Position numbers and translations under genes: made by a program. A stretch of DNA of 64,000 nt from Raillietiella orientalis (lineage: Eukaryota): assembly GCA_036172245.1 (NCBI GenBank), contig JAYWIR010000044.1:1116001-1180000 (forward strand), given 5' to 3'. Of the stretch, positions 1 to 63,045 are shown piece by piece. Below the pieces are notes generated by a model. That model ran no database searches. It was not told the DNA's origin and saw nothing but the letters and a program-made list of their open reading frames with translations. Numbering within the stretch: the stretch's first letter is position 1; each line of letters opens with the position of its first letter.

Positions 1-3000
1 CAAGTGCTTTCTGTCGGCAGCTCAGAAGCTTGAACGCCTTGGGCCTGCGACCACTTTGAAGTTTTTCCCCTGCGACAGAATAGCGAGTCCCATCGAGAAT
101 TATATTGAAAAAAAATGTGAAATAAAAAATAGGTACGTTGAAGTGCATGCTGTCGATGAGCACTTACTGACGGGGAATTGCTCTCTTTATCTCGCGTTCT
201 TGGACAGTGCCAAGAGTCTGCCAAGTAGTGCCAAGAGAGAGTCTTGAAGTGTCTCTAATATTTTCAGCACAGTCTTAAGAACGGTGAATTCCTCTTTATG
301 CATGTTTTCCTTCAAAAAAAAAAGGAAAAAAAAAAAAAGGGAGGTGTGTGTTGCTCTCCTTCACAACAGATTGTGAACAACACCATTGCAAATGTTAATT
401 TTTCCATTAGAAGACTGCTCATCGCAGCTGACACAGCACAGCACCCTGCTACGAAAGCATGGATTCAGCATAATCATCATGATTTTCAATTACGCTCTCT
501 GGAGAGTTTTATTAATTAAAACATCGTCACGTGCAGTAGTGGCTGAGATCAAAATATCGCGAAGGTAAAGTCTGTTACCGGATGAACACTACCGTGCTAT
601 GGCGTCCTGGATTTATATTGCACGAACTCGGAGGCATCAATTCAGAATCTCGAGCAAGTGAAAAAGCCTTGCACCTGCAGTCCCTACATAAAATAAACTC
701 ATCTATCCCTTCGCTGCCTCCGATGCCGTCCAAATGCGCTCCCGTTCGAGGAACGAATGTTCGGCAGGAAGCTCTCCGGAGGAAATCGATGTCTCCTCCT
801 CATTTGTGTACTCAAACGCGGCTTGCGGTTCAGCAATGCCTTTCTTCTTCTTCTACAAGGGAGCGCCAAGCACGCTGCAATCCATTTGAACAAAAGTCGC
901 CTTGTAAGATTGGGGGCTGCGCATGAAGTGCAGATTTACGAAAATATCCCGGGTTCCCATGAAGATACTGGTGCCATGACATTGCTTGTGCGGGGAAGAC
1001 TTACTGCGGCGCTCTGTTCGCGATAAGCCGGACTTCTAAAAGATAATAGAAGATATGGTCATCGTCGATACATGTGTACGTATCACGAAGATAGTGTATT
1101 CTCAGTGATCCCAACGGGGCACCACTCTGGAAACACGGGGTGTTTTCCCAACATTCACTTCATGCGCAGAAGAAATTTATAAGGCAAAACTTGCGCTTCT
1201 GATCCTCAGGCCGCTGATTAAACGAGAATTCCTTTCCATAGTTCGTACAGAGATACACTAGGTCGGAACATCCGAGTCTCATCAGGGTATAGTTCGCTGA
1301 TGGAAAGAGCGTCCCTTTACCTGGAGGGCAACTAAATCTTGCTGGTCCACGGGGAGCGTCTCCAGACCAGTGAGTTTGAGATCGGCCGGCCGAATCTTGT
1401 GAATTTGCATGCCGTCACTCAAGATCTTCCTGTTCCATTCTTTTCTTGCGTGTGATCGCCTCACCCTCTCACTTGGGTTGCTTTCGCGACGGTCGATGGA
1501 TGCTCAGCGTTCATCATTCAGGTGGTTTGCGTTGTGGGCTGCCTGTTTGTCGTGTTTTTCCTCTCTAGGTGGCCCGCTTCGCCTTTTGGACGCAGCATCG
1601 GCACGGTCGATTTCTTCATCGCGTCCTGTTCTGAAGACCATGCTTCCTGAAAACACAAGAGTTGGTTTCCTAACGTCGACGACTAGCAGTTCTTGTTCTT
1701 TCTCTGGAGGAGAGTTAGGCAGACACCTTTCTTGTCCAGCTCTTTTCCAGTTCGGGAAAGATGGACTTTACAGCTTGACCTCTGCTGCTGAGTGGCGATT
1801 CGGCGGTCTGTTCGGTTCTCCTGATCCCTTAAGCTCGTTTGTTCCTTCGGTTGAAAGACCCCTTCTTGTTTCCGTTCACAAAGTCCCCTAATCCCATCCC
1901 TCAGATGTCTCTCCTGTCATGCGTTTTTTAAACTCCCTAATTATTCCCGTTCCATTGGATTCCCTCCCTGCTCATTAGGGGTTCTAGAAGCGGATGTGCA
2001 TTTCCTCTCTCTGGCTTGCATGCTCTGAGTCGAGGCCTGCTCTACACAGATGACTCACTCCAGATGCGCAGGAGAACACGAGGCGACGTTAAAGGCACTA
2101 TGGGACGCGTCCCCAGAATGGGTTTCGGCGTATCCATACATGCAAATGAGCATGAACTTGTGGTTTCCGGGTGCACAACGTGGCAACTCATTATCATTTC
2201 GAGACGGTGCCTGGATACAATAAGTCTCTTCTCGATGAACATCGCGCTACTGCCAACCAGCCATTCTAGCGACTTTTTTCTAAAAGTTCGACTCCTGGTT
2301 CCGGGCGCCCACGGAGAGGAGGACAGCGCATTCCAAAAATAAATGGTCAGGGAAATCTCTCCTTCGACAACAGGGATAGCCCTCTGACTGGCTGCCTGCA
2401 GGACGTTGCTATCCCGAAGTTTGAAGCTTTCCTCTGATGAAAGTTTTCACGAGATCTGCTCGACGCTGATAGGCCTCGTCATGGAGCGGGACCACTTGCG
2501 ATGAAGTCGCCTCTCCCACTTTGAGTGCCTGCTTTCCCGCAGCCTCCAGTTTTTGATTCTCTGCTGAAGGACATCTCCAGGGAAGGTAGAACATCCAAGA
2601 GTGGCGAGCTGTTCCTCTTGTGGTGCAGGAACACCGCCCGCAAGATCACTCGGAAACGCTGGGAGGTAAGCAGCGCCATCGGTGGCAGCACGAACATCAC
2701 GCTTTTCGACTCATGGAACAAACCGCGGCCATAGACGAATCAGTGGCTTGACCTGAAAGTAAACAAAGCCACCTTCGACAGAATGAGAATGATGTCAGGA
2801 GACCATGAGGAATCGTCGGGTGCTCATGTCTGGCACGGGATTTCCTCCATCTCACTCTTCGCCTTCCCGCGCCACGTTTACTAGGAACCGGGCATCGGGG
2901 ATTTAGGCTTGCGAAGCACCGTCTAGGAAAGGCCTCAGTCCAGCTTTTTCAATGTCATCCAGCATTCAGAGACAGGGAGGAAAAGTTGGTTGTGGCTTTC

Positions 3001-3820
3001 AGCAAGGAGCTCGGAAGCCTGAAAATGTTGCACGATCTCCGCGAGACCATTTCTTCTTCCGGGACCTGAGACCGCGATGCATCGCCAACACGCAAGGTGA
3101 CAGCGAATCCATCCGAAAGCTCATCGCTAGCCTTGAGGCGCTTAAAGAATCAGGCGCTGACCAGCTGACTATTCAGATGGGATGAGTTTCGACGGACAGC
3201 TCCAGTCGGATGGGAACCAGAAAGCTCCCATCCGACTGGGCGCAAAGAACTCCAGGCTCGTTCGAATCTTTCAAAGAAAGACACGAGGTTACACGGACAC
3301 CTGCATCCGAACGTGTTCTGACCCGGGATTAGGCGAATCTCTGCATGAACCGCCTAGGTATCGCTTTGAAGGTTCTGTAGGGCTTCTTTTCCTTTGGACT
3401 GTTGGAGCAGTGAAACACGATGGATCCGGAACGAGAAGAAGTGTTCCCCAACATTGATCCGACTGGATTCCTTTCGTAGCTTCCCTACAAAGTTTTCTCG
3501 GAAGGACGGCTAAATGCTTTTCTTAGAGGAACTTCTTACCCACTTCATCGGGGTTGGTGACATCGGGGACGGCGATGGTGAAAGTCCTTGTTTCTGGCAA
3601 GGAAACTGTCTGTCAGAAATAAGGACCCATTTTGGATGATGATTTGAGTTTGATGGTTGTCACAGCATCCCTATGAGGTGTTGACTGCGTATCTTGGTGC
3701 ATTCGTCAAAGAGCAGTGGGCATCGCGCCAGTCACCAGATGTTGCCAACGAAGATGATCGTTGGCGAGACTTTGAGACGAGGATGCACCTCCTCCAAGTG
3801 TGCACTCCAAGCAAAGACCC

Positions 3821-4680
3821 CGCGTTGGAGACCGTGAAGCTGTGGTCTCCGTGCTCTGTAACAATCGTTGTGGGTTCGAATCTCCACGCGGAGGATCGAC
3901 CCAGGGAAATGGGCGTGAGCCGTGGGTTTCGAGTTCACCCCGCAAGATGACGCTGACTGGCTTTGGGTGCGGCACTGGTGGAAGCAGGAAACCAAATGCC
4001 CCGTTAAGTGGCTGGGATTCGGTGGTTGACCCTCCGGGGTCCTTTCAGGATTCAAAGAGTCCTTCGGGATTCCCCTCCGGCTGTAGAGTGGAGCCGTCCA
4101 TCGCGTGACAGGGAGCTGGTTCGTACCCCCATAGGAGGTTGCCTCTCCAGAGTTCAAGAAGGGAGCGCCCTTTCAGGAGCCACCCTTCAGGGAGATTCGA
4201 AAGCATCCCTTCGGGGTTCTCTTTAGGAAAGGAAACAAGGAGAGCTTCCATTGATGGCTCCATCTAGAGTGAAGATTCCGGGAGCAAATCCTTACCTAAT
4301 TCCCTTCTGAGGAGAAATAATGGAGCCGCTCCCTCCAGGGGTCCCTCGGAGAGCACAAGAAAGGGTTCCCTTCGCGGTTCCCTACAGAGACAACAAGGGT
4401 GAAGGTTCCCTTTAAGGTTCCTCCCAAGAGTAAGAGGAACGGACTTATTTCTCCGTAGCCTTCCTGGATCCATAGGGTAGTTCCTGAGGGTTGCTCCCGG
4501 AATTGAAGAGTCAATGCTCACCATCGGGTGGCATGGATGAGTGTCAAGATCTTCGCGAGGAGACAGACGGTCTTCCAGCCCTCCTTGAGAACCAAGAAAA
4601 AAAAAAAAGAAAAAGCCCCGAAAGAGGAAAGTTGGAAGGAAAACAGCAAAACAGGAGAACCCCAAAGGATTCCCATTTTC
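3821..4680 (+). mobile_element. tRNA-headed SINE-like family, near full-length copy
   Basis: B-box GGGTTCGAATC (~3871), second T-loop-like motif, internal ~40 nt unit array, shared 3' block (CCTGGAT.CATAGGG...TTGAAGAG...CACC..CGGGTGGCATGGA) and A-tract ~4596-4615. Homologous to about 12 other loci in the window. Confidence 0.85.
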
Positions 4681-5509
4681 TTCAAGTTCACATGATTCAA
4701 GAGGATCCGGAAATGCACATCTGGCCTTGTCGATGGCAGTGCTTTGTACACTCCTTGCCGTGCTGCAAGACCAAGGAATTCACCGTCTTTGGGGGAGCAC
4801 AAAGTAGTCGAGTCGCATCGGCAGGAGGATGAGAGATGCCATCTGCAGGATGCGAAAAATTCCCAGGTGCATTGGTGGTGGCCTCTGCAACGCTCATGCG
4901 GTGCCGGTTTCGTCTGGGGATCTCCCAAGCCACGGCAGGTAGAACGAGCGGAAAAATCGGGAAGCCGAAAGCACATAGCAGAAAAGGGGGAAGGATGGGA
5001 GTCGGGGAGAAAGTGGGGTGTGCTGAACTTATGAAAAGAAAGCAAACGCGGCTGCGCCCCGAGGTCACGAGCTTGTTCGGTTTGGCCGGGCGATGCGATG
5101 CAAGCTCCCCTTTGTACCCGCTGCCGCTTTCGTGTTTTCCACTCACGTCTGGTTCCCAGAGCAGGAGCCGCTGTCCCACCTCTCGGCTAGCAGAGAGGCA
5201 GCGCGTGCTCTTGCTGCGGCGCAGAGGACTTCGGTTGTGTGGCGAGGGTGTGGTCCACGATTGGCGCTTCCTCGCTCGACGTGCCCGCGTGCGGCCACTG
5301 AGAGTCTCGGAAAGCCGTTCGTTCCCGGAGAGGGATCGGAAGGGAGCTTCTCCTACAGCTGATGCAAATCTGACTGCGAAGGAGCGACGGTGAGACCCAA
5401 ATTCTTGCACTCCTTGCACCTCGACTGCTGTTGGCTCAGCCCTCGTCAAAACTGGTCAAAAGAGTAGGTTACAGGAGGAGCTTCTCTGAGAACGTCTTAA
5501 GCGCCTGAT

Positions 5510-6332
5510 AAGGAATCATTTTGGGTTCTTCTTTTTCTGTCTTCGCTGCTTTCCTTTCAGCTGTTTTTTGTTTTTCTTTCGGGTTTTCTCTTTTTTGGCT
5601 CTCCAGGTACCTCAAGAACCCTTGAGAGCCTGGCGGCTCACGCATCTCTTCAACTCTGTTCCACTCCACCCTGGGGTGCGTGTAATTCTTCAAGAGTGTA
5701 GGGTATCCTGGGAAGGGGACCATCCTTTGAATTCAGGAAGGATTCCGGAGAAGGGGAGTCTGTTCCTCACTACTGGGGGAGATCTACGAAGGGAACCTCC
5801 ATCCTGGTTGTTCTCGAAGGGGACTTATCCATTTTTCTTCTCCGAAGGAAAACCCGGAAAGGATCCGCTAGTAGGAATTTCTTATCCGGAGGAAACCCGC
5901 AAGGGAAGCGCTCCTGTTTACTCTGAAGAGAATCTCAAAGGGACGCTTTCCCAATTTTCTCTGAAGAGTCGCTCCTCGAAGGGAATGACACGCTTCTTTA
6001 CGCATTCTGGAGAAGTTCAACACCTATACTCCATGGTACGAGACGGAACGCCCTCTCTTTTGCACAACCAGAGGGGAACTACCTACTTGATTCTGTTTTC
6101 AGGAAGGACTCGGTGGTGACTCCCAATCCCGGTCACTCATCGGGGGCATCCACATTTAACAGTGCCGCATCCGAATAGAGGACAACCAGCGTCATCTCGC
6201 AGGAGGAACTCGAACCCACGACGCACCCTCCATCTCCCCTTATCTCTCGGCGTCGAATCCTTCCGAGTATTCGAACCCACGGTGCTCAGTGGTGGCACGC
6301 CCGGAGACTGCAACTACGTGGTCTCCGACGCG
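5510..6332 (-). mobile_element. tRNA-headed SINE-like family, near full-length copy
   Basis: Reverse complement has the head CGCGTCGGAGACC...GGGTTCGAATAC, the GAGATGACGCTGGTTG block, the unit array and the TTGAAGAATTACACGCACCC tail. Confidence 0.85.
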
Positions 6333-7449
6333 AATTTGGAATCGACAGCGATTTTCCTGGGGCTCCTGAGATCCCTCGCAATAAGCCAGGGAAGGAATCC
6401 CGCTGTTTCCAATGACAACCTCACTGTTTGATGGAAACCTCACTCAATTTCCGAAAGACGCAAGCGAACGGCAAGAGCTCTCAGGCCGGAGAGGAGGGGA
6501 AACGTTGCTCCGGAAACAAGTTTTCCCGCTCCCAGCGTTTACTATGAGGGCTGCAAAGAACCGCCGGTCCGGCATTGCGGAAACCAGCGGAAGCGACATC
6601 CTCCCAAGGTGAACGGACTCTTTGGTTCAGGTGCGAAATCGAGTCGCCTTTAATCTCCTTGTTCCTTGAAGCTCCCAAGATAGCAGAGAGCCCCCTCTGC
6701 GTGGAATTGTTTTAGAGGTCACGTCATTATCAAAACCACCATCTCCTCTCAAAAGCAAGCAGCTCTGCTGAGAAGCGCCAGGGGCAGGTGGAATCTTCCA
6801 CGGCCTCCTCCATTGCCTCTGGTCGTCCGGCCTCTTCGCTGCTTAAGGTCTTCCTGAGTCATTCGGGTACTCGACGCTCCCTCTGCTGCATCGATGAGAT
6901 GACAAAGCATTGGAGACCTCTGCAGAGAGCGTTTCCTGCCGTACCTCGGGGGTTACGGAGGCTCAACGGAACGGTACGCGGCTTGCGAACGAGGTCACGC
7001 CCAAAGATCTCTCGGCACTTGCTGGCGGATGCATTTCTCCTTCCTCATCGTTTCCAGCTCCTACTATCTTTCCAGTTCATTGGACACGCCTTCGAAGTGC
7101 AAATCGCCGCCGCGCTTCCGTAAAAAGGTCGCCAAGGGGTGCACCCGCTGCGGGATGGTGGAAACCTCGCTTCATGTGCTCCTGGAATGCAGAAGGCCTC
7201 GTCATGGAGGATCACGACCTTCGATCTGACCTTGAACCGTGGGAACGAAGACAAAGTACTCCTGCGCGCGGTCTTTCGCTGATCCGCAAGGGATGTTCAA
7301 GATAAGAGAGTGAGCCTTGCTGAGGGCAAGGAAATCTGCTAGACAGGACACTCACCTCCAGGAAGCGAGCGCGCGACTTTCTTCTCAGGCAGTGAGGAAT
7401 TTCCCTGGTAGGCCAAGTCTGCTGGGTCGGGTTCCCGGGTTGAGAAGGT

Positions 7450-9799: not shown

Positions 9800-11750
9800 A
9801 TCCGATAAACCAATAAATAAGTGGTTTATTTGGTGAGCGTGGGGTCACAGGGTTCCCGATGACTCCCTTCAGAGTTCTTTTCTGGCTTCTTGCGGGGCTG
9901 ATGGGATCATTTCCTCTCTCCTCGCAGCGAGGCGGCTTCCGGAGCAGCGGTCTTGCTGACCAGCTGCCCCGTTGCTTAGCTTCCAGAAAGATCAGACCAA
10001 GATCGTTGAATGCTGCCATCTACATCTCGAATCAACCTTCACCAAGTGCCTGCCAAGACGTTTTTTTCTTCAAGGAAAAAACGTCTTGCTTCAAGCAAAG
10101 CTCGCTCGAAAAACCGAACAAAAAAGAAGAGGCCATCAGAGAAGGGGACGAAATGGTCCAGACTTGGCACAGGATGCTCCAAGTACAGAGTCCGAACGCA
10201 TTCGCGGTTTTTCTTCAACTATAACTAATCGTTGAAGAAAAAGGACTTACATTTCAAGACGCTTCACCGCTTCAAGTTTTGACGCTCTCATAGGTCTTTG
10301 CTTCCTCTTCGCCGCATCTCATCAGTACCTCCCGACGACCACGTGGTAATCGGTCCCTGCCAGGTCGCGTCAAGCACGATGACTCGACCTCCTCCTCTTT
10401 GGAGTACCAAATCGCGTCCTGGGGACGGCCTCTAGGCGAGGTTTGCGTCCACCGCGAGACTGAGGAGCACTCACTGGCGTCTCATCTTCATAGCAACGTG
10501 AAGTTTCCCACAGAGTCCAGCAATTCATTCCGGAGGCGCTTTCCTCGTTGCTCTGAACGGAGGCTGCGAACCCCGCGCTTGCATCCCAGAAGTCGGGACC
10601 ATGGCGGCTGGCGCGCTGTCATCCCGGCGACACCTGGAGGGCGGATTCAACGCGGAAATTCGGGACTGAGTCCTGTCCATCTTCTGCCTCGCCTACGCCA
10701 GGGCGCGCCTCGAAGCTCCCTCGAAACGGGAGCTTCTGGACCTTTTTTTTCTGCTTGCGTTTTTCAGCCGTTTGGCCCTCCATCTCGCGGCGAAGAGGTT
10801 CGCGTTCCCTTCGCCGCGGGAGAAGGGAGAAATGTCACGTGCAAAGGGTGGCAACACAGCGGTCCAGACCCCAAGAGGCTTTCAGTAAATTCTTCTTGAG
10901 CGCTGGATTCACGTTGAGGTCGGTTTCATACCGCTTTCCAGTACAACCTTGAGTATCCGTTGATTCCCAGTGCTAGCGCTCCCTTGCGAAGAAGCGACTC
11001 TGGACGCGTCCGCAAGGGCATTTAATTTGAGTCTTCCCGAAAAACTTCTTAGTCCGCCTTGACCCGACATCCGACCCAGCAACCATGAAGAGACTTGAAT
11101 TTCTGTTGAAAACCGAAGCACTGAACTTCTACAAGTCGAGAAAGCCACATCAGGAACACCCAGCAGTTGAAACCTTCGCGTCTGTCTCCCGGATATCTCA
11201 TGGGCTGGACGTCCAGCTCAACAGACGCGCTGGCAGCCTTGTGGCTGGGGTCCTCGGGCATGGCACAGAGCGTTACGGGTTCGAATCCTCACTTGGAGGA
11301 TCGATGTCGAGAACACGGACTGCGTCGGGGATTTCGAGTCCTCCCCGCAAGATGACGCTGGTTGACCTCGGTTGGTTTCAAGTGAGGCGGCATTGGTGGA
11401 AGCCGGAAACGGGATGCGTCGTTGGCTATCCGAGATAGGAAGTCGGCCCTCCAGGGTCTTTCCAGAAATCAGGGAGCTTTTCGGGATTCCAATCCGGTTG
11501 TGCAAATGGAGCCGTCCATTGCGTGCCATGCAGCTGGTTGGTACTTTCCTCGGAGGGTGGTTGCCTTTCCAGAGTGTAAGAAGCGCGCTGCTCTTTTCAA
11601 GGAGAGCGTCTGCCAACGCAACCCTTCTCTTCAGCTGGACGTCCAGCTCGATTCCCATAGAAGGACGATCGACTATCTCATGCCCGGAAGAGTCGTCTAC
11701 AACGTGCCGTTCTTGGAAGGTTCTCAGCACTGCACATTTTCTCCATCCCT
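9800..11750. mobile_element. Two further LINE ORF2 3' fragments (minus ~9800-10750; plus ~10800-11750)
   Basis: Minus: NAFGLC..VW..FLFG..FWK post-knuckle pattern. Plus: frame restored across the SINE insertion at 11220-11633. Motifs are very degenerate. Confidence 0.3.
11220..11633 (+). mobile_element. SINE-like copy, 3'-truncated, flanked by a 16 bp direct repeat
   Basis: Head with GGGTTCGAATCC at ~11277. GCTGGACGTCCAGCTC occurs at both 11204-11219 and 11634-11649. Confidence 0.85.
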
Positions 11751-20502: not shown

Positions 20503-20845
20503 GCCTCACCACGGTGCCGGTTGACTAGATGCCTCTCCAGGGACGTGAAGAAGCAGGCTGCTCCCTTCGGGGAGCGACCCTTCAGAGAAATCGGCAAACG
20601 CCCATTTGGGGTTTTCTTCAGAGGTGCAGTGAGGAGCGGTTCCCTTGCTGGCTCCCTCCGGAGAAGGAATTTCAGGAGCGGATCCTATCCGGGTTCCCTT
20701 CGGAGAAGAAACAAGCAGTGTCTCCCTCCATGAAAGCCCCACAGAGATAATGGGAAAGAGGTTTCCTTCGTGGTTCCCTCCAAGGAGTAAGAGGAACAGA
20801 CTCATTCTCCAGAGGCTTCCTGGATTCATATTATGGTCCTCAAGG
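20503..20845 (+). mobile_element. SINE-like copy, headless (array and start of tail)
   Basis: GCTCCCTTCGGGGAGC hairpin, unit array and CTTCCTGGATTCAT block. Confidence 0.85.
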
Positions 20846-20857
20846 GCTGCCTTCTAA

Positions 20858-21320
20858 GTGGAATTTCTTCCCCGGAGGGAGCCAGCAAGCGGACCATTCC
20901 TTCGATGAGCACCCCGAAGTGATACTTCCAAATTTCTCTGCAGGGTCTCTGCCCGAAGGGAGCAACGCGCTTCCTCACACTCTAGAGAGGCATCAATCCG
21001 TCGGTTCCATGGTGATGAGGGGACGATCCCACTCGCACAACCGGAGGGAAAATCCCAAAGAGAACTGGCGTTTCTCGATTCCTGGTAGGACCCCGGAGGG
21101 TCGAATTTCAAATCCCGGTCACTCAAAGGGGGCATCCAGTTTCCGACGTCCTCCAGCCTGTAGGCCAACCAGCGTCATCCTGCAAGGGGGGGGGGGATCG
21201 AATCCCAGGACGCAGTTCTCGTTCTCGCCGCTGATCCTTGCTAGGGCGGGATTCGAACCCGCAACGGAGGGACCATGCGTATGCGGAGAGACCGCATACG
21301 CATGGCCGCTGCCAACGCTG
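20858..21320 (-). mobile_element. SINE-like copy, head to mid-array
   Basis: GGGATTCGAACCC (reverse B-box) at ~21249, CAGCGTCATC block, array units 0-2; abuts the opposite-strand copy. Confidence 0.85.
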
Positions 21321-21599
21321 GCCAAGGCATGGCGCCAGGGAGTTCAAGCGAAAATATTCCCTAAGAGACAAAAAAGCACCTTCGATTTCCCGAAACCAGG
21401 AGCGCAGGTTTCCTCTCCTCCGACGAAGGAGCTGTTTGTTTTCCACTCTCGTTCGACGGATTCCTCGAATTCAAGAAATCGAGACGAAATTTGTAATTTG
21501 ATTTCCCGAGAGGGAACGAACAAAGAGGACCCCGCATCATCCCTGTGAATTAATGAGCGTAAGACTAAGATGATGCAATATCTTTCGGGATCGGAGCTG

Positions 21600-23700
21600 C
21601 TATCACCCTAATCCGATGAACAGCAGCAAATCGAGTGCCGTTATCGAATTAGCTCGGATTGGAACCGTACGCTCTCTCCCTCCGATGGAGGAATCTTCGG
21701 TCGGCATCTCCATAGCAGCAGCTGCCGGTTTCGTCCCTGCACTGCCTGACCCCGCGCTGAAGAAAATCTCTTCTCTTACTCCTTCGCCCGTCCACCGAGA
21801 CAACTCTGCCCGGTGGTGTTCTACCGGAAGACGAAGGAGCACGTCGCTGTTGCATATCTTGAGGTCCAGACGAATGGCGGCTGCATTTGTCAAAAGACGC
21901 TCCCTGAGCAGACCGGATGCGTCAATTAGCGCAAGTTTACAGCAGCAGTTCTGAAATTCATGATCTTCCGAGAGCCAGCGCGCAACGAACTTACGTGCGC
22001 GGGTGCCGGGCTTTTCCTTTGCACGCGAAACGACGCACCTGACTGCCGTCCGGGCTGCTGGGCGACGTGGTGCACGAAAATTCCTTTTTTTTTCCAGTTC
22101 CCTGAGGGCTGATCAACCCTTCAACTCCTTGGGGAGAGCTCACAAAGCTCTTTGACACCGTTCACGCCATATGAGGGTGCGTGTGACTCTTTCAATTGAA
22201 GGGTAATTCGAGACGGACCACTCTATGAACCCTATGAATCCAGGAAGAACCAGGAAGAAGGAGTCTATTTCTCTCATGCTTGGTAAAGAACCCCGAAGAG
22301 AACCCGAAGAAAACCTCTTACTCATCCTCTTTGGATGGGTTCTCCGGAGTGGACTACTCCTTGTTTCATCTCCGAAGGGAACCCGGATAGGATCCGCTTC
22401 TGAAATTCCTTCTCCGGAGGGAGCCAGCAAGGGAACCGCTCCTCACTGCACCTCTGAAGAAAACCCCAAATGGGCGTTTGCCGATTTCTCTGAAGGGTCG
22501 CTCCCCGAAGGGCGCAGCCTGCTTCTTCACGTCCCTGGAGAGGCATCAGTCAACCGGCACCGTGGTGAGGCTCCAATTCCTGGAAGGACTCCGAAAAGCC
22601 AACTTGCCGTCGAGTCCAGTCAAAGGAGGCATCCGGTTCGCGGCTTCCATCAGTGCCACGCCTGAGACCAGCCAGAGTCATTCTGCGAAACCGGCGACTC
22701 ATCCGTTTCCCTGGCGACGGTCGTTTACGTGGGGATTCGAACCCGCGTAAACGCCTGATGCCACCCACTGAAGCCGCAGCCACACGGATGCCGCCAACGT
22801 GGATCAAAGTTTGTGCAGAGGAACAGCTCGTGGTTACACAGTCTGCTGGTCCGGATCTTCGTGACTCGCAATATTATGGAATTGGCTGTATTTGCCTCAA
22901 GCCGTGAACTCTGCTGTGGGTCGGCTGCCAGCGTCGGCAGCCCAGCACCTCGCCGCGGGCATTCTTCTCGCCTGTGAAGGCACTGGAAGCTTGGGAAGGT
23001 TCCGTCTGGCGTAAATTTTGGCTCCGCAAAGACGTGTGAAGGCTTGCGGGCCATGGGCCAAACCCGACCACGACGCTCTGACGACGGAGAACGGACAACC
23101 ACCTCCAGAGATCTCAGCTTCGGGGAAGAACGGACTGCAGTCCGGGGAGGCGTGCCTCCTGCCTCGTCCTGGTAGCTTTGGGACGTGCCTCCTGCTTTTC
23201 GCGTCGCGTCCCGGTCGCCTTCCTGTGGGGCGCGCGCCTCCCTCGATCGTTCGAGGCCGCAACCTCTGGAAGGGAGCGAGTGTAAGGAGATGTAATCGAT
23301 GCAGAGCGATGCACGGTGGTCGGGAGCACCCGAGATCTCGACCGGCGCTGGCGCCGCCTAACCCATGCGTTCGGTAGTAGGCACCGACCTCGGCTTCGCT
23401 CTTCGCCACCAGCGGGGAGAGAGGGCACGCTCTCTGGGGGAAGGGGCAAAGGACAACAGCGCTCTCGTGAAGGGGACATTTCGCCTCGCGCGTTCCGACG
23501 GACGCTCTTCGCGGCGTCTCTGGGCCCTGAGCGCATGCGCGTGATTTGAGGCCACTGGCCACGTGCTTCTCCTCCTCCATCTACGTTTCCCTTGAATGCT
23601 CCTTGGTAAACACTCATAATGCCGTCCCTAACAATTAAGAGACCCATAACCGGAAGCAGCTCCTAGGGAGCTACAAAAGATGTTTAAACATGGTCCGGGA
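21600..23700 (-). mobile_element. Decayed L1/Tx1-like 5' part (ORF1 remnant and APE endonuclease start), interrupted by a SINE-like copy
   Basis: MNFRTAAVNLR*L...LKICNSDVLL...RWTG..EIFFSAGSGSAG matches an APE N-terminus (N.RGL, D...LQETH, W.G..FFS.G..GV). Upstream FQCLHRREECP is knuckle-like. Confidence 0.5.
22084..22800 (-). mobile_element. SINE-like copy, near full-length
   Basis: Reverse B-box at ~22732-22744, array, tail GGGTGCGTGTGACTCT and T-tract at 22085-22093. Confidence 0.85.
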
Positions 23701-24850: not shown

Positions 24851-25114
24851 ACTTGATAGGATGCGATGCCTCGCGATTTTCTCACCAGGAGCAGGACCCA
24901 AAATGCTTATTCGATAGGCCGGCGTTCCAAGAGCTGAGGACCAAGGAAGTTGTCAAAAAGTCGGCTATTTTACCGATAGCCGACTTTTGAATGGGGGTTT
25001 ATGTGTTTTCGACAAGTGGATTATGAAGTGATTATGATTATTCTTCAGTTTGTCATTTTCAGGGATTTCGCTGCTTCAAAGTGGACGCTGGCCTTCTCGT
25101 CGAAGAGTTGGATG

Positions 25115-25834
25115 ATGGGCACCCTTCCTCTGTTTTCTCTGTGTCCTTTCAGCTTTTCTTTTTTTCCTTTTGGGTTTTCTTTTTTTTTGGTTCGCCAAGC
25201 GCTCAAGAACCGTTTGCCTGGATGGTGATGAAGCTCTTTAACACTGTCCATGCCACACGAGGGTGCATGCTGACTCTTCAACTTATGGGCAATCCTTAGG
25301 GACCATTCAATAAAACCAGGAAAACTCAGGAGGAAGGAGTTTTCAAGGAGGAAGGAGTACTCAAGGGAACCTCTTCCTTGCGCTCTTCTGAGGAACCGCC
25401 GGAGGGAAGGCTCCATTATTTCTTTTCCGAAGGGAATGCGGAAAGGATCCGCTCCTCGTTTTCTCCTCTGAAGACAACCCCGAAGGGACGCCTCCAGATT
25501 CATCCCCGAAGGGATGAGCGTGCTTCTTACACTCGGTAGAGGCAACCTCCGACGGGGGTATGAACCAGCCCTCTGTCACGCGATGGACGGCTTTATTCTA
25601 CAACCGGAAGGAAATCCCGAAAGACTCCCTGATTCCTGGAAGGATCCCAGAGGGTCCGCTTCCAATCTCGGCCAGTAAGCAGGGGCATCAGGCTTACAGT
25701 GGAAGCTTCTCACCTCAGGGGGACTCAAAACTGACAACTTCTCCATTCTCTACGTCGACCCTTCCCCGGGTGGGGATTGAACCCGCAGCGTTCGATGCCA
25801 CGCGCAAAGACCGCAGCCACACGACCGCCAACGC
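25115..25834 (-). mobile_element. SINE-like copy, near full-length with one array unit missing
   Basis: Degenerate reverse B-box at ~25773-25784, array, tail and T-tract ~25180-25188. Confidence 0.85.
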
Positions 25835-26364
25835 TTCTCATCACGCGCACGCGTGTAGTCTGTGGAGTGTCTGTCCCCGCGTTCAAGGTGTCCTACATGC
25901 CTGCCACGCAGTTGCGGATGTCCAGGAAAATCCCTGCTTTTCCGTGCACCAGTTGCGAAACAGATGCTCTTCAATCATCGCGGGTTGCACCTTCATCTCT
26001 GAAGGAAGAGGCCCGGCTTGGCCCCAACGAAGGAGGCGATCCACGCACGTGTGCGGCAGCCGCAGGGGGAGAAGAAGAAAAGAGGAGTGATGTCAGCCAC
26101 TGGATGTTCTTGAAAAACTGCGTCCTGGGAGAAGTTCGGGGCAGCGGCAGGAGTGCAGGTGCATCCACGAGGGGAAGCATCCGAAAAACTAGGTCGAAGA
26201 CCGTCACAAGAACATCGTTCCATCCTACTACGCCAGGGGACCAGCCGATCAGCCGACCTAGGGCTATGGTTGAGATCTGATCCCTCCGCACTTGCTGACT
26301 CTTTGAAGGCCACACTAGGCGCGCTTCTGAGGAGGCGCAAGACAAAAAGAAAAGGCAGCCACCT

Positions 26365-26677
26365 ATCGCGTGCTGGTTGATACCTCCTCGGGTGTCGGCT
26401 CTCAGAGTGCTAAAAAGCGGTCTGCTCCCTTCGGGGAGCGCCCCTTCGAAACTCTCTCTTCGGAAGAGGAAACAAGAAGAGGATCCTTTGCAGGTTCCCT
26501 CCAGAGAAGAAATTTCAGGAGTGACTCCCTCCGTGGAGTGTCTCCGGAGAGAATAAGGAAGAGCTGGTTCCCTTCGGAGTTCTTCAACCAAGCGTAAGAG
26601 GAACAGACTTCTTTCTCCATGGTTTTTCTGAATTCATAGAGTGGTCCCTAACTTGAAGAGTAACACTCTCGGGTGGC
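26365..26677 (+). mobile_element. SINE-like copy, headless
   Basis: GCTCCCTTCGGGGAGC at 26424-26439, array and TTGAAGAGTAACACTCTCGGGTGG tail. Confidence 0.85.
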
Positions 26678-38300: not shown

Positions 38301-38394
38301 CTAACCTACTCTCCGACTTGACCAACTCTAATCTAGCCTTTCTGAGCCCAGTCTTCCTGCCCGACCTAAATCTGCCTGATATTTCCTGCAGATC

Positions 38395-38700
38395 TTCAGA
38401 GGAGTGAACAGCAGCGGTTCCTTGCGGGTTTCTCCGGAGAAGAAACTCCTACTAGAGGATCCTTTCCAGGTTCCCTTCGAGAAGATGAAATGGAGAGGAC
38501 CACCCACCTTCCAGGGGGTATCAATCCGGAGAGAATGAAGGAGATTCCCTTCGATGAAACCAGGGTGAGAGGTGAGATCCTTCCCCTCCCGGATGGATCC
38601 CTCCCCAAGCGTGAGAGGAATGGACTCCGAGATCTTCCTGGATTCATAGGGCGGACCCCTCCTGGAGTGCCGCCTATCTTAAAGAATTACACGCACCCTC
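38395..38700 (+). mobile_element. SINE-like copy, headless, intronic
   Basis: Array units followed by CTTCCTGGATTCATAGGG and AATTACACGCACCC. Confidence 0.85.
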
Positions 38701-42800: not shown

Positions 42801-43156
42801 TTCGCGCCAACGGCCATAACCAATTTTCCTGCTTCCTGCGAGGATCATCTCGTGGGAGTGCAGACCACCGGAGGGAACTCGGTTCAGGGCTCCGGAGGAC
42901 CGTCTCAAAACGCAAGTGAGGAATGCACGAGTGGTTTGCGCATGGCTCTCCGTTCGGATGGACTGCAGGTGGAGCTCGCATTTAAGAAGTGCCGGGCGAT
43001 TCACCCTCTTCCTGAGTGTGGGTCTTCTCAGCAATAACGCCGGAGGCGGGATAGTTTCAAAGTGACCCACCCCGCACAGGGATAAGCCGCTAGGGAAATG
43101 CTCCAAACTGAACTCTCGAGGCTGCGAAATTCGGTTTGCGAGAAAAATCGCGGCCT

Positions 43157-43747
43157 GTGTTGGCGGCTCCCTGTGGCTACAGACCCCGCGGTGGTGCAAA
43201 GCGTCACGGGTTCGAATCCCATCCAGGGAAGGATCGACTCCAGAGAAATGGGCGCATCGTGGGTTTCGATCCCCCCCTCCTTCCACGATGATGCTGGTTG
43301 GTCTCAGGTGTAATACTGGTGGAAGACGGAAACCGGATGCCCCTGTTGACTGACCGAGATTAGAAGTTGACTCTTCGGGGCTCTTTCAGGAATGAAGGAG
43401 TCGGTTCCCTCCGGTTGTTAAAATGGAATCGTACTACGGAGCTAGTTAACTCATAGAGTCGCCTACCCAGAGTGCCAAAAGTGCGCTGCTCTCTTCTGGG
43501 AGTGTTCTGCAGAGAAATTTGGAAGCGCCTCTTCAGGGCTCCCTACCAACTGTCAGAGGAATGGACTCCTTCTTCCGGAACCTTCTTGGATTCATGGGGT
43601 GGTCTTCTTCCGGAGTGCCTCCCCCATAACTTGAAGAGTTACACGCACCCACGGGTGGCGTGTTGAAGAAGAGTTTCATGGGTACATCCTAGCCTACCCT
43701 CCGCTCACCGACCGGTTCTTTAGTACTTAGCGAACCAAAAAGAAAAG
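43157..43747 (+). mobile_element. SINE-like copy with collapsed array, intronic
   Basis: B-box GGGTTCGAATCCC at ~43208, only about two array units, tail TTGAAGAGTTACACGCACCCACGGGTGG and GAACCAAAAAG. Confidence 0.85.
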
Positions 43748-44149
43748 ACACACACACACATCTTCACGTCGGACCATCCCTCGTACACGCTTAATTTGCC
43801 TTCTCATGACTGTTTTCCACGCCCTAGAATGAAATGACAGCTGAGAGAGCTCCGATTTGACGCCGTCAGAGACATCCGGATAGCTGTGTTTGAAAGAGAT
43901 CCCTGCAAATCACTACGTCATTGGCATGCGGAAGTCGGAATGTCGTGTCAAGCAGTGTACAGAGATGGAACCCATCAGAAGAAGGAAAAAAAAAAAATGG
44001 AAAATTACGAGAGAAGCAGCAGCTTCGTGTTTTTCACGGGAACGTTTCTGGGTACGCCAGGTCGGATTCCAGAACCTTTCTTCTCCGGACGCCTCGCTGC
44101 TTTCGAAGAGCGTTCGGAACGGTACGCTCCGTAAACCCCAGGGGAGTAT

Positions 44150-46150: not shown

Positions 46151-46809
46151 CTGAAACAGACAGTGGGATGGAATGTTCGGGATGATCCGGAGCTCATTTC
46201 CACCCGTGCGTGCAGCAGTCGAAAAGGTTTATATTTTATTTTATTTTTGCGCTGTGGAGACGCATCCTCGCTCCTGAGGAACTCGACGGAAACGCTCCCC
46301 CACGCCGCTCTACCAGCCACGGCCTATCTGGAAGCAAAGACGCAGTGGGAAAAGCGCCATTTTTCACTTTTATTTCTTCTGAAAGAGAAAAGTGGCTGCA
46401 GAAATAAAACGTGAAAAACGACTCTCTCCAAACATGTCTTTTTCCCGCTTGTCTTTTAAATCGCTTTCCATCACTCTGTACAGGAAATTCAAAGGCTCCC
46501 ATCCTACTTGGGGACGGGGTCGGCCAGGCGCCTACTTCCTCTGATGAGAGGAACGTCCTTGTCTCCATGACGTCAGAGCTTGCGTACTTTCCCACTTGGC
46601 GTACGCTCCCACTGATGTTCTGCGGATCCAAGAAGCGAGGATCCGGTGCGAAGAAAATTTTCACGCTTTCCGAAACCATCTGGACTGAGAACTGAGATTC
46701 TCAAGGATGACCCTCCTTCGAGGATTCGGACTGCCTCCGGAGCTTCCATTAACATTGTAGCAACTTTCTTTCCTTCTATCGAGCGTCTCTAAAACCATCT
46801 AAATTGCCA

Positions 46810-47592
46810 GCGTCGGAGGCCTTGTAGTTAAGGATTCCGCGTGTGGTACCATGGGTCGCGGGTTCGAATACTGCAGCAAAAACTGACGCTACTGCGTCAG
46901 TTTCTGGGTTGGGTGCCGAGTTTCTCCTGCAACGGCGCTGGTTGGCCGAGACATTCGGGCGTGGCCCCGGTGGTCGTTTAAGCCGGAGGCCCCCAATGGA
47001 TGGGAGTCGAGCTTCGGGTCCTTCCAGGAATCAAGGAGTGGGGAATTCCCCCGCCGGTCGTACAACGGAGAGAGGACCCCTCACCGTGGGGACCTCCCGG
47101 TTTCAAGATGGAGAAGGGGTCCTCACGGGCACCTCTCCAGTTGTTCAAAGGAGCGGACCCCCCTGTTGGGGGGTCCCTCCGAGTCGTCGCCTCTTCACAG
47201 AGTGCAAGGAAGCAAGCGAGAGCGATTCCTCTGTGGGAAGCTGCAGCACCCCTTCTGAGTTTCGGAAGCGTCCCTTCGGGGTTCTCTTCAGAGGAGTGAA
47301 CAGGAGCAGTTCCCTTGCGGGTTCCCTCCGGAGAAGAAATTCCTATGAGCAGATCCTTTCCGGGTTCCCTTCGGAGAAGTTGAAATGGAGGGAACCACCC
47401 CCCATTACGGGGGGTGTCCCTCCGGAGAGAATGAGGAAGGAGATTCCCTTCGGGGTTACCCTTCGGAGACAACCAAGGTGGGAGGTACGAGCGTGAGAGG
47501 TCCGGACTCCGAGCCCTTCCTGGATTCATAGGGCGGACCCCCATCCCGGGGTACCTCCTATCCTGAAGAATTACACGCCCCCCTGCGGGTTG
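46810..47592 (+). mobile_element. SINE-like copy, near full-length, intronic
   Basis: B-box at ~46860; clearest unit array in the window at 47271-47470; tail block to ~47590. Confidence 0.85.
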
Positions 47593-47985
47593 CCGCCAGC
47601 GGAGAGGCGTGGAAACAAAACAGTGTTTTCAATCAGCTTTCTTTCGATTCGAAACTGAGGCAACCACTCGTGATGGGTGCTTCCAACTAGCTGCGTTTGA
47701 CCTCTGGAGGGGGTGTCTCGATGCTGCAAGCCGACGTCCATTTTCCAATGGCTTCTCATCCGGTACCGGAGAGAGGACGTATCTGTTCTTCCTCCCGGAT
47801 GCGCGTAATCTCTCGGCGACACGCGTGTGGCCAAGGAAACAGCTGCGGTTGAAGGCCACGCATTCCTTTTTTGGAATGACAAGGAAAACGAATTCCAGGA
47901 AGAGGAGGAGGAGCCGAGGCGCGTTTTGCAATCAATGTGCAGTTTCGTCTGTCGGAGTCGACCTGCATAAGGTCTGCCTGCGCTG

Positions 47986-53950: not shown

Positions 53951-55805
53951 ATCCTTTGGTAGTGTTCTCTTTGGACTTGAGTTTACTTTGGAACATCTTG
54001 AGACGTTCTCTGAAAAATAACAAGTCGGAGGTCCGTCCTTTCTTAACAAGAGAGCTGAGGATGATATCAAAAACGTGACGCTTTTTCTTTGCGATGCGTA
54101 CCAGCTGGGGAACTAAGTACGAGCACTGTGGAGAGCAACCCGATGCACTTTTGTGCCTCTCCCTGAAATCGTAAGAATGCATCGGAGGTGTCCATATGAG
54201 CTTTGGATGTCGACTGGACTTTGCTCCAAGAGTGCCAGTTTTTTCCCCACGCCATCAAAGGAGGCACTCGCTTCTCCCTGGTCGTGGGGAATCTGGCTGT
54301 CTTTTCTGCCTCGACAAAAGCTTTAGTGTTCCCTGAGTTCTGGTTTTGCGCATCATCTGGAAACCCTTTCACATCCCGAATTTTTTTTTCCCGTTATTCA
54401 ACGAGCAACTTGTCATGTGAACTTCACAGCCGTATGTCAAGCCTTGGACCACGGAATGGGCTCGTCACACAGCCTGAAGAAGAATTGGTGGAGCATGCAA
54501 ACTCGGCTAAAAGAGTACTTAGTGTTGCCAGAAAAGAGCCTAAGGATGCATAATTCATGAGATCGAGTTCCTCCAGGTATGAAATCGAGTTTTACTTCCC
54601 TGAAAGCAAGCAAACGTGGAATCGAACAAAAAAAAAAGGGGGGGGGAGGGGGATCGAAATGGTCCGAATTTTAAGCATTTGGGCAGAAGGACATTGCTTT
54701 GCGGTTTTTCTTCTCGATGGGCAGAACGTTACGGAGGCAGAGGTCTTGAAAATTGAAGGCAAGCGGAAGTCACACGAGAGCCAACAACGAGCCGCGCCTA
54801 GTGCGAAACGAGGCTTCTTTGGATGAGGTGGAGTCAAGCAATATCGTACATAGAAAATGCTCCAGGGCATTTCGAGGTGCGAAGGCCGCTGTGCTTGTTC
54901 CAGTCTTTGCCACAGCCGAAATGCGCAGCTGACATCTCAGAATAGTAGCAGCCGTGATGAACACATAGAAAGGGTAGCACCAGGTTGGGATTAAAGGCAG
55001 CATTGGTCTGATGTAGCCTGAATTAATCTTTTGATACAACTGCGGATGCTGTTGCACCGCAAAACCGCTCTTTCTGTCGTTTGCGAGCATTTTTGAGAAA
55101 AGGTAATACGAAGATAATGAGGTTACGGAGTCATGTAGTGGCCGCGGCTCAGATGACAGCTAGAACGCGGGATAGAGATTTCGGAAACTCATCCAAGACC
55201 CTCCACGGGGATGAGCCTCTTCTGATTGATTTTTCCTGACAGCGTAACTCGCTATGGGAGGTGAAGTCATGGATCACAGCATGCCCTGTGGGTAGTGTGC
55301 CATGCCTGGTCCTGGCGACGCATCCCACTCCAGCTGGTCTTCACATAAACTCAGGTAATCGCAGCAGGAGGAACCAGTTGGAGGCTTCGATGCTTTCGAG
55401 AGCATCTTCGAGGGGCAACGGAATTCAAGAGAAACCAATAAGGAATGGTCCATTCCCTCACGGTCATGCTTCCGCCGCCGTCAAGCGGCGAAAGGATTCG
55501 CGCATAGTTCCTCAAATCCCCCGAAAACCTGGAGTGACCCTATCTCCCAGCCACAGCACTCTTATTCTGAAGGAAAGGTCAACCGTATGGTTGCTAGCTG
55601 TCGCTCGAGTGAGCAGAGCACAAGGGCGTTGCAGGCGCATCGCTTAAGAATAGATTGGGGCCTTTCAAGAAGAGGCAGGCCACGCGGATAGCTCATGCTC
55701 AGCAGAAAGAGGATGCCACGAGGGGTTCCCCATGGAGCAGAGGGAAAGGCTCTGCTCCACGGCGAACGGCGCCGCCTCCAAAACGGAGCACTTTCGCGCG
55801 CCCAC

Positions 55806-55996
55806 CTTGTGTCCTCCTCTCTGCCGCACCAGGCACGCGAGGGTCGCGGTTTTTCCGGACTCCACGGTGAGGTTGGTCTCCGCAGATGGGATAAACTGAG
55901 GTTCCATCTCTGCTTCCAAGTATTTCGTCTTTCTCAGGAACTCTTCGGCATTGGGGTCGATGTTCCCGTTCACGACGAAGTTGACCAAGAGCAGAT
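55806..55996 (-). CDS. dpr: Dpr/ZIG-8-family two-Ig cell-surface protein, exon encoding the end of the leader and the first half of Ig1
   Basis: Reads xLLLVNFVVNGNIDPNAEEFLRKTKYLEAEMEPQFIPSAETNLTVESGKTATLACLVRQRGGHK, matching the Dpr pattern P.F...NVT..G..A.L.C.V. Acceptor tcttcttccAG (phase 1), donor AAG|GTGGGC (phase 0). The symbol is family-level only; the paralogue cannot be named. Confidence 0.9.
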
Positions 55997-56129
55997 CTGG
56001 AAGAAGAGGAGACCTCGAAGCGGGCAGAACGCTTTCAGCTGCGGTCCGAGCTGGGGACGACGATCGCAGCCATCTCCCCAATTTCGCTCCCCTTTTTTCA
56101 CCGCGCACCCGCGCTCGTCGGCTGCAGGG

Positions 56130-56443
56130 CATCTCGACAGGCAGCAACGGATCCCACCCGGGAAAGGATGAACGCCGAGACTGTGGGGAAGGGAATGACT
56201 CTGGCTGGCCTATTTGGATGTGGCACTGGTGGAAGCCAGAAACCCCCGGATGCTCCCGTTGACTGAGGGGGAATTGGAAGTCAACCATATTTTCCTCCAG
56301 AACTTTCCTGGATTCATAAAGTGGTCCCTCCGGGATTACCCCCTATAACTTGAAGAGTTATACACGCACCTTCGGGTGGCATGGACAGCGTTAAAGAGCT
56401 TTGTAAGGCTCCCCTAAGGAGGCGAACCGTTCTTCAGCACTTG
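56130..56443 (+). mobile_element. SINE-like copy lacking the whole array
   Basis: GGCACTGGTGGAAGCC..AAAC..GGATGC block joined directly to TTCCTGGATTCAT and the tail with CACCTTCGGGTG. Confidence 0.8.
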
Positions 56444-56539
56444 GAATCCTCTCGTGCGAGCAAATTCGCGCAAATTTAAGACCGGCGTCTCTGAAGCAGA
56501 CCACGGTCATTACACGCTCCGTCTCCCGCCCTGCCGAGT

Positions 56540-57500: not shown

Positions 57501-58742
57501 ATCGGGGTCCCACGAACGACCACGCGCTCCAAGAGCCACAGTTTCCAAGAATATGGTTCGCAAACCAGCTCAGCAAGATGACTGACGTCGCTGAACATCC
57601 AGTACAGCCCGAGAACACCTTACTGGGTGCACTGTCAGGCTTGAGCGGCCTTCGGGCGACGGAGCAAAGACCTACACGGGCAAGTCTTGGGCCAGAAAAA
57701 AAAAAGAAATCTCACACCGAGAAGAAGGCTGCGGGTTCGAATCCCGGAGGTGAATCCTCGAAAAAGAGAAACAAAAGAAAAATTGGAAAACTACAGTTCA
57801 TTGCACCCAATTCATGCTTATTGTAAATGAAAGCATTGAAAATCGCTGTCGTCTCATTGAATTTTATTTGCGTGCTTTTGATTATTCGAAATTTCATTTA
57901 ATTCCATGAAATAGTCAATGATTTGCATCTGCTCGCTGACCAAATATTTTTATTTGATAGCGGACGTGGAATGTATAGTACTTATAATGATTTATTTAAG
58001 GAATTGAGAAAGGCTTTGATTTATGGATGTCTTGAATGCTTGTTCTGAGCCACGCACTTCCTACGGGTTGTGAACGGACACCACGAATTAACAAAAGCTG
58101 TCCATCTTCAACGTTATAGAGGCAGTCCATCATTTTTCCACTTTAAAGCAAAAATAGATGGGCTAAAAATTATCGTGCTCATTCATTATTCAACTTGAAT
58201 CGAAGAGGAAAATAACCCGTCCTCACTTCGGTGGGTGGAATTCAATCGGCGGAAACGACTCTGCACTTTCATCTCTGTCGCTCTGGATGCAGGAAAGTGC
58301 TCTTTCTCGCGCTGCTCCGTCCGAGGAAACTCGAGGGGAAGCGGGATTCGGGACGCTCAAGTCACGTGCTCCGGTCGCCGTCTAGGGAAGCAGCCGAACC
58401 GGAAACAGGGCCGCAAGATTCATCCGCGGCGTTGCCGAGTTACCGCCCCCACAGGAGGACGGTCGCGTTTTTTTCCGCCGCCGCGTTATGCAAATCCACT
58501 ATAGGCCTGCCGCCCTCCGTGCCCTATAAGAGGGCGAGAAACATCCGGGATAGCAGAGACAGGATTGGCTTGCAGCTTTTCGCGCTTCCCTTATAACTGA
58601 TGCATGGCGGGTTGTCATAGGAACATCATCAAAAGTTACATGGAGAAGGAGGGAGTGGCGAGGACCACACACTTCGACGAGGAACGCCATTCGCGAGACA
58701 AGCAGCAACGCAGCTGGACAGGCCGAGGAGAGTTTTCCTCAC

Positions 58743-62500: not shown

Positions 62501-62554
62501 GCCGCACCTGCCAAGTCCTTTAAAAAGGGGGTTCAGTTTCCGGTGCTCCCGGGG

Positions 62555-63045
62555 TGATGGAAATCTTTTCAAGTTCTGCTTTTGCTGCTCTCCTTCCAGT
62601 TTTTTTTTCTTTTTGGGTTCCCCGAGTGCTGGAGAACCGTTTGCCTCCTTAGGAGGGGCGCTTGCGAAGCTCTTTGACTCTGTCCACGTCACCCAAGGGC
62701 GCGGGGAGCTCTTCAAGCTGCAGGCGTAACCCCGTTGGGACTACCCTACGAAACTAGGGAGAAAATAGTCCGTTTCTCTTGCACTTGCTCCTTCTCTCCG
62801 GAGGGACCCCTGGATTCATACAATGATCGATCCGGGGTTGTGTTCTACAACTTGACGGATCACACGCACCTATGGATGGTGTGGGCGGAGTCGAAGAGCT
62901 GCGTGTAACTCTTCAAGTTTCAGCAGATAACTCCAGAGGGACCACCTATGAATCTAGGAAAGCTCCGGAGAAAAAAGTTTGTCCTTCTTGCTCTTGCTCC
63001 TTGTTCTCTCCGGAGGGCTTCCTGGAGGGAGCGGCAGCCTCCCGT
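62555..63045. mobile_element. Cluster of three SINE-like 3' fragments in alternating orientation (-,+,-)
   Basis: Tail block on minus (62555-62810), plus (62810-62900, GGATTCAT...CACACGCACC) and minus again (62901-63045, GCGTGTAACTCTTCAAG). Confidence 0.75.

Follow-up and report, generated by a model that had tools for sequence, protein, structure and literature searches.

The closest described parallel to the element reported here is the rodent BC1/ID system. BC1 is a 152-nt RNA from a single Pol III locus, the master of the ID elements, and comprises a tRNA-derived 5' hairpin, a central A-rich region and a 3' unique region; the gene has no terminal poly(A), and its copies are silent (PMC1978531, PMC4233971, PMC13034634). 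A second point of reference is SINEBase, whose description covers 175 families spanning 75-662 nt, gives a limit of 1 kb (<700 bp in the general definition) and sets SINEs apart from pseudogenes of functional RNA (PMC3531059). Tailless retropseudogenes, the products of L1 internal priming, are described for therian mammals and for known RNAs (PMC5322556).

The element is a dispersed, retroposed family in the genome of Raillietiella orientalis. It shares with rodent BC1/ID (and also primate BC200) a single locus without the hallmarks of insertion, among the best 40 candidates per search, and its source, like BC1, has a tRNA-derived 5' hairpin, a central A-rich tract and a 3' unique stem-loop. 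It differs from BC1 in that the source is seven times longer (1,096 versus 152 nt) and has a long body of repeated hairpin units, in that the host is an invertebrate, in that the copies often include the 3' unique hairpin, and in being known here from sequence alone. By analogy, the element would work like BC1, but without homology to it. With the tRNA-derived SINEs of the SINEBase description, including the quasi-oligomeric CHRS, it has in common an interspersed distribution, high copy number, a tRNA-related head, a body of unknown origin, an A-rich tail and internal degenerate repeats, and its tails and target-site duplications are those of non-autonomous retroposition; unlike those SINEs, it exceeds the 1-kb limit, both in the source and in full copies (~1.0-1.1 kb). 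As in the tailless retropseudogenes described, the 5' end of the copies is fixed, their 3' ends fall at defined A-rich positions that are single-stranded, and duplications flank them, but here this is the majority form of an invertebrate family. Given one gene-like locus and an invariant core, the family may belong with the pseudogenes of functional RNAs rather than with the SINEs. A search of the literature found no paper on the element; Dfam, Repbase, the SINEBase sequences and supplements lay outside its scope, so a catalogue entry is possible.

The window, that is, the whole stretch of 64,000 nt analysed, was searched with profiles built from family copies elsewhere in the genome. They matched 7,232 bases (11.3%) in 15 segments at ~13 places (Table 1), in agreement with the initial annotation, which had put the element at ~11% of the window and about 13 loci. 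The ~850-nt layout given there proves to be the commonest truncated form; the full-length element is ~1.07-1.11 kb and runs, in order, from a tRNA-like Pol III head through related bulged hairpins, an internal A-rich tract, a terminal hairpin and a T-run to poly(A), within target-site duplications. Likewise, the ~40-nt units and the B box are present as reported, but what was taken for an array of up to ~7 units is part of a longer series, as related hairpins span the entire body. The flagged copy, intact at its 5' end, breaks off near source nt 890, where A-rich sequence is a recurrent point of 3' truncation; its ends show no clear target-site duplication. Its first segment (46806-46850) folds with a z of -3.3.

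Table 1. Element copies and parts in the window
Feature	Position	Strand	Basis or remark
Flagged copy, subfamily Y0	46806..47631	+	92.6% identity to Y0 consensus
tRNA-related head, refolded as rod-like hairpin	46806..46880	+	tRNA identity and folding
Pol III B box, same in all subfamilies	46860..46869	+	sequence comparison
Five ~40-nt units, part of the hairpin run	47271..47470	+	sequence, folding
Invariant core block A, 42 nt	47302..47343	+	identical in four consensus sequences and source
Invariant core block B, 32 nt	47348..47379	+	identical in four consensus sequences and source
Old-subfamily copy, head to A-rich tract	3819..4681	+	
Middle-subfamily copy	5512..6333	-	
Old copy, 5' part	11226..11607	+	
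Old copy, internal part	20508..20863	+	inverted relative to copy 20771..21321
Old copy, 5' part	20771..21321	-	head is ARAGORN 'tRNA-Glu'
Old copy	22084..22803	-	
Old copy	25110..25834	-	
Old copy, internal part	26349..26677	+	
Younger copy, internal part	38393..38700	+	
Old copy with internal deletion	43152..43748	+	
Old copy fragments	56148..56446	+	
Two old 3' fragments	62552..63040	-	

Several further observations concern the window and the flanks of copies elsewhere. Part of the element is duplicated locally with 86% identity (20503-20830 and 22233-22571), element halves lie in close or inverted pairs (20508-21321 and 62552-63040), and a lone B-box-like motif at 57734 falls outside the element profiles. 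A reading frame with an Ig-like stretch (55665-56342, minus strand) has no Pfam match; from the resemblance, which would point to an arthropod, we presume it to be a host-gene exon. The exon beside copy L028 is that of a ryanodine receptor, which marks the genome as an animal's, and a short inverted copy of the head adjoins the 5' end of L026, which suggests template switching at insertion.

The initial annotation had placed C(UNCG)G tetraloops at the centre of the element. All five of the hairpins that it quoted are found (4028-4041, 4057-4072, 20559-20576, 26423-26440 and 56367-56378), and 17 of the 20 UNCG-loop stems of at least 4 bp in the window fall inside the 7.2 kb of element, against three in the remaining 56.8 kb. 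Nevertheless, the flagged units themselves contain no cUNCGg stem of at least 4 bp on the B-box strand (two lie on the opposite strand), and 47266-47385 folds more poorly than its shuffles (z +1.8). Nor do these loops define the family: cUNCGg loops account for 5/16 predicted hairpins in the old consensus (O), 2/15 in the middle (M), 1/26 and 1/24 in the young consensus sequences Y0 and Y1, 1/22 in the source and 0/21 in the flagged copy, so that they are common only in the oldest subfamily and rare later, and the loops of the core are UUGC and UUUCC. This fall in the predicted counts from O to the source marks UNCG loops as ancestral to the repeated unit and gradually lost. The multivalent scaffold function put forward with them is one that we infer rather than observe.

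The genome amounts to 210 Mb, and each full-length query returned 2,904-4,181 first-look candidates, of which the best 40 of ~4,000 were scored per search. The DNA examined holds at least 139 distinct long copies, above the SINEBase threshold of at least 100, and the 5' end is fixed across family copies. When the 3' end was used as query, 30 loci were obtained; 23 extend to the 5' end, are mostly 1.0-1.1 kb long and end in the hairpin, a short T-run and poly(A), whereas the seven 5'-truncated copies were read at their junctions only. Target-site duplications of 10-20 nt, mostly beginning with A and following the poly(A), flank 18 of the 23 full-span copies, with one mismatch allowed and with two of the copies representing one duplicated insertion; in a second set, 14/20 copies have duplications of at least 10 nt. 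A-rich sequence follows the T-run in 29 of 37 distinct 3' ends. The 48 distinct young copies were taken as best matches, which favours long ones; in 46, the start is no more than 15 nt from the 5' end. Of the 48, 13 end at the terminator, 34 at three recurrent internal sites (nt 888-900, 955-993 and 1019-1051) and one at nt 826, giving early ends in 35/48. The copies arose by target-primed reverse transcription, with priming either at poly(A) beyond the terminator or internally, where A-rich sequence is single-stranded.

As to the enzyme, the genome contains many APE-RT LINEs with a zinc-knuckle ORF1, which are L1/Tx1-like by the features of that clade, and U6 has also been retroposed (48 matches, two of the six read being gene-like). 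No tail matching the 3' end of the element was found in 50 RT loci, and a 17-nt motif common to the element and LINE 3' UTRs gave shuffle p values of 0.006-0.73, falling below 0.01 in two of seven related LINEs. Because no partner-LINE tail was found, we only infer that a LINE of the L1/Tx1 type supplied the reverse transcriptase.

A tree of the 139 long copies resolves the O, M and young (Y) groups, with mean identities to their own consensus of 81, 84 and 94%, respectively, thirteen near-duplicate or unclear copies having been excluded from the groups and Y being capped at 36 copies in this comparison; members of the youngest group, Y1, lie ~1% from their own consensus. Compared with the genome's own tRNAs (the best-scoring of 50) over 73-77 columns, the consensus heads are 65% (source), 61% (Y0), 64% (O) and 59% (M) identical, against the SINEBase tRNA threshold of at least 60% over at least 60 nt, which the element head reaches; 0-1 of 200 shuffled heads matched the tRNA score. 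The best tRNAs were those for Arg, Gly and Asp, with no clear parent among them. tRNA-His was considered as the parent of the head; it was among the 50 tRNAs compared, but not among the best. The B box is invariant and the A box weak; together with the T5 terminator and the TATA-like box of the source, these are indications only of Pol III transcription. All subfamilies retain the unique 3' hairpin and the terminator.

The new result is a candidate single source gene for the family, on the minus strand of contig C6 (G000:C6:5519590-5520685; locus L254). The initial annotation had suggested either an unusual SINE or the amplification of a structured Pol III RNA not yet characterised; this gains support, and a candidate source gene can now be put beside it. 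L254 is full length (1,096 nt), and its T5 terminator is followed directly by unique DNA; it has no poly(A), and the best duplication at its ends is 5 nt. Its flanks are unique in that none of the other 45 of 46 matches, from the best 40 candidates per search, continues into them. Moreover, it alone of 47 intact heads carries a TATA/ATAT motif at -34 to -23, where 14/30 tRNA genes have one, and both gene-like U6 loci carry the motif at the same position. No shared element was evident upstream of L254 and the two U6 loci (L291 and L292). The stretch of ~25 nt that leads from the TATA-like box to the start is, judged by eye, similar in the source gene and one U6 gene. Two further copies, L255 and L288, also lack poly(A), and they lack the TATA-like box as well.

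The place of L254 in the family can be read from its relatives. An offspring copy (L259) lies 100 kb from it between different flanks and is truncated at both ends; it differs from L254 by 3 substitutions, whereas the other 17 copies differ by 16-47; the pairing has a support of 100/100 in the tree, and the source-specific changes are common to nested sets of copies. L254 is gene-like, not insertion-like, at its ends and sits at the tip of the subfamily ladder. The distances of the source from the O, M, Y0 and Y1 consensus sequences are 0.173, 0.125, 0.033 and 0.008, and those of dead copies of the same age are 0.148, 0.128, 0.045 and 0.009, respectively. The two series match, and the four successive subfamilies fit clock-like change of one source lineage, at about the neutral rate. 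Two older copies, L300 (81% identical to Y0) and L290, have GG between the T-run and the poly(A), and GG are the first two flank bases of the source; as a sign of read-through, this concerns two bases in few copies, found by a pattern that required GG (12 matches). At four positions, the source has the older base and most Y1 copies differ; alleles or a second source therefore existed.

The core, which consists of the two blocks of 42 and 32 nt, is identical in the four consensus sequences and the source: 73/75 columns are invariant, against 523/770 overall, a degree of invariance reached by 0/5,000 permutations. Dead copies mutate 20-30% more slowly within it. In the source it forms two weak predicted hairpins (z +0.3) with a bulged C, U-U internal loops and loops of UUGC and UUUCC. 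Because this invariant core folds weakly, it suggests a site of sequence-specific binding rather than an element of stability.

By contrast, the whole source RNA folds strongly (z -6.9 for the sense and -4.9 for the antisense strand; 30 shuffles), as do its 5' 131 nt (z -4.0) and its 3' hairpin (z -3.4), and sense is better folded than antisense in all five sequences. Over the 26 substitutions from Y0 to the source, the predicted energy changed by -3.7 kcal/mol, against an expected +17.3 (0/40 shuffles), whereas eight dead copies lost 23 to 43 kcal/mol. By step, energy retention was equalled in 0/60 shuffles for M to Y0 and for Y0 to Y1, in 8/60 for O to M and in 18/60 for Y1 to source; it was similar on the opposite strand in three of the four steps, and the older steps, read backwards, were not significant (z -1.1 and -0.8). 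Covariation, the initial annotation's proposed check on the stems, mostly fell short of significance. Pairs were retained at 15/31 over the four steps against a null of 0.41 (p 0.24), the ratio of stem to loop rates is 0.73, against 0.89 (p 0.13), and the four-step test showed no G-U excess (G-U versus A-C changes, 5:4). An earlier test had given 14/19 for M to Y (p 0.007, the one significant result among six sense comparisons) and 3/16 for O to M; strand-specific covariation was not upheld by the stricter four-step test. The stems appear, from these predictions, to be maintained in the recent source lineage, with selection specific to the RNA strand unproven.

We conclude, with a probability of roughly one half, that the copies in the window are dead retrocopies of one long-lived, persistent and selected Pol III gene built like BC1. 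In the mechanism that we propose, Pol III would transcribe the C6 gene from the TATA-like box and B box to the T5 terminator. The RNA, ~1.1 kb long, would begin with a tRNA-derived domain folded as a rod and end in the terminal hairpin, with the A-rich tract ahead of it; between them would lie the hairpin body, expanded by duplicating a hairpin unit of ~40 nt. LINE machinery, probably of the L1/Tx1 type, would copy this RNA from added poly(A) or internal A-rich sites, and the copies would then decay. A protein would bind the invariant core, folded as two imperfect hairpins, and the host gene would be the target of selection, since competition among dead copies cannot improve a single locus that is fixed. 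By analogy only, the most likely role would be in a cytoplasmic RNP, in which the A-rich tract could bind poly(A)-binding protein and the repeated hairpins several copies of one protein. A bolder version, which we regard as rather unlikely, is that a host-functional Pol III RNA gene of kilobase length arose independently in an invertebrate. Its tRNA head would drive a run of duplicated hairpins acting as repeated binding sites for protein, and this run might even decoy the ORF1 protein of the dominant LINE, in which a zinc knuckle is found, although such binding is speculative; the retrocopies would form both a dated history of the gene and the landing site of a second, site-specific retroelement.

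A tenable but tentative alternative to the selected gene is a selfish, over-long SINE whose masters have succeeded one another. C6 would be only the current master, and selection among copies, acting on transcription, stability or the capture of LINE proteins, would preserve the structure and core. The copy number and tRNA head are those of a SINE, the full-length poly(A) copies retain the promoter box and terminator and could found new masters, and both the near-neutral overall rate of the source lineage and the conflicting sites in Y1 would be expected; in rats, a few ID copies gave rise to additional subfamilies (PMC1978531). A master that had recently arisen as a retrocopy ought, however, to have poly(A) and a duplication, and the C6 locus has neither, but has a TATA-like box; the unique 3' hairpin and terminator retained by all subfamilies, and the flank-like GG of older copies, also speak against this alternative.

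Improbable, in our judgement, is that the source locus is single but that its hairpins and core persist by mutation processes (unit slippage, palindrome correction and conversion by copies) without selection. Such processes could account for an energy effect seen on both strands, the missing G-U excess, the frequency with which perfect new stems and homopolymer-rich loops arise, and the somewhat slower mutation of the core in dead copies. Yet dead copies, under the same processes, lose 23-43 kcal/mol; the core is an imperfect, weak hairpin pair that palindrome correction would not preserve, and sense folds better than antisense throughout. Still less probable is that the family consists of a known Pol III RNA of the 7SK type, much diverged, and its retropseudogenes. 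Genome searches with RF01052 and RF00100 were blank, and blanks of this kind do not show absence; a terminal hairpin with a U-run and the retroposition of U6 would also suit such an RNA. Against it stand the tRNA-related head with its internal B box, the fast turnover of sequence and the outcome of the Rfam searches, which returned no match at gathering score in the window and none near it in six copies and the source, where the hits, all sub-threshold, included NrsZ (E 4e-5; 32.6 of 76.9 bits) on the opposite strand. Internal repeats and hairpins might also recall a DNA element that carries a tandem array inside it, of the Helitron/Helentron type (Helitrons being named in the initial annotation itself) or another. 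This is refuted by the ends, as non-autonomous elements of that type have no poly(A), no long duplication and rolling-circle ends, whereas this family has poly(A) tails, 10-20-nt duplications, a Pol III head and a terminator. The ends are those of a retroposon, unlike a rolling-circle element, which leaves the proposed single-stranded DNA mini-hairpin without support.

The source genes of SINE families are rarely pinned down; the persistent Pol III gene that we favour is here placed at one locus with allele-specific bases and is directly testable. If it is functional, the BC1/BC200 pattern would hold for an invertebrate as well, and for a modular RNA of far greater length. The dated copies make it possible, inside a single genome, to set selection on an RNA gene against the neutral decay of that sequence. 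Should the locus be no more than a selfish master, it would still represent a SINE well past the catalogued size range, with copies made mostly by internal priming.

Family copies also carry a second repeat of ~0.9 kb, weakly similar to the end of LINE ORF2 (E 1e-6; Pfam blank), for which a search gave 270 candidates in the genome. In nine of the ten loci examined, all of them fetched for the element, one end of the repeat falls at a single site immediately ahead of the terminal hairpin, and the A-rich tract of the element lies directly upstream in eight; of ten strict 3'-end matches, only four are at that site. The loci include L298:205-1135, L281, L289, L163, L049, L041, L009, L125 and L040. 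Target bases are duplicated at several loci, the 5' junctions differ and one insertion is tandem. The repeat is a candidate for a site-specific Tx1-like element that targets family copies; Tx1-clade elements targeting RNA genes or transposons are known (PMC4494074).

Two observations on the LINEs of this genome may be added. The dominant APE-RT LINE occurs in arrays with a spacing of ~5.6-5.8 kb, often on small contigs or near contig ends (for example, G000:C71, C53, C33, C114, C189 and C150), and its 3' end is a small hairpin followed by a few A residues. A different non-LTR element, with RT and no APE match, is found at L232 (G000:C81:70000-76000) and L234 (G000:C83:275000-279700), in the former with a different second element directly upstream; its 3' end abuts, in antisense, putative 28S rDNA, apparently close to the R2 site.
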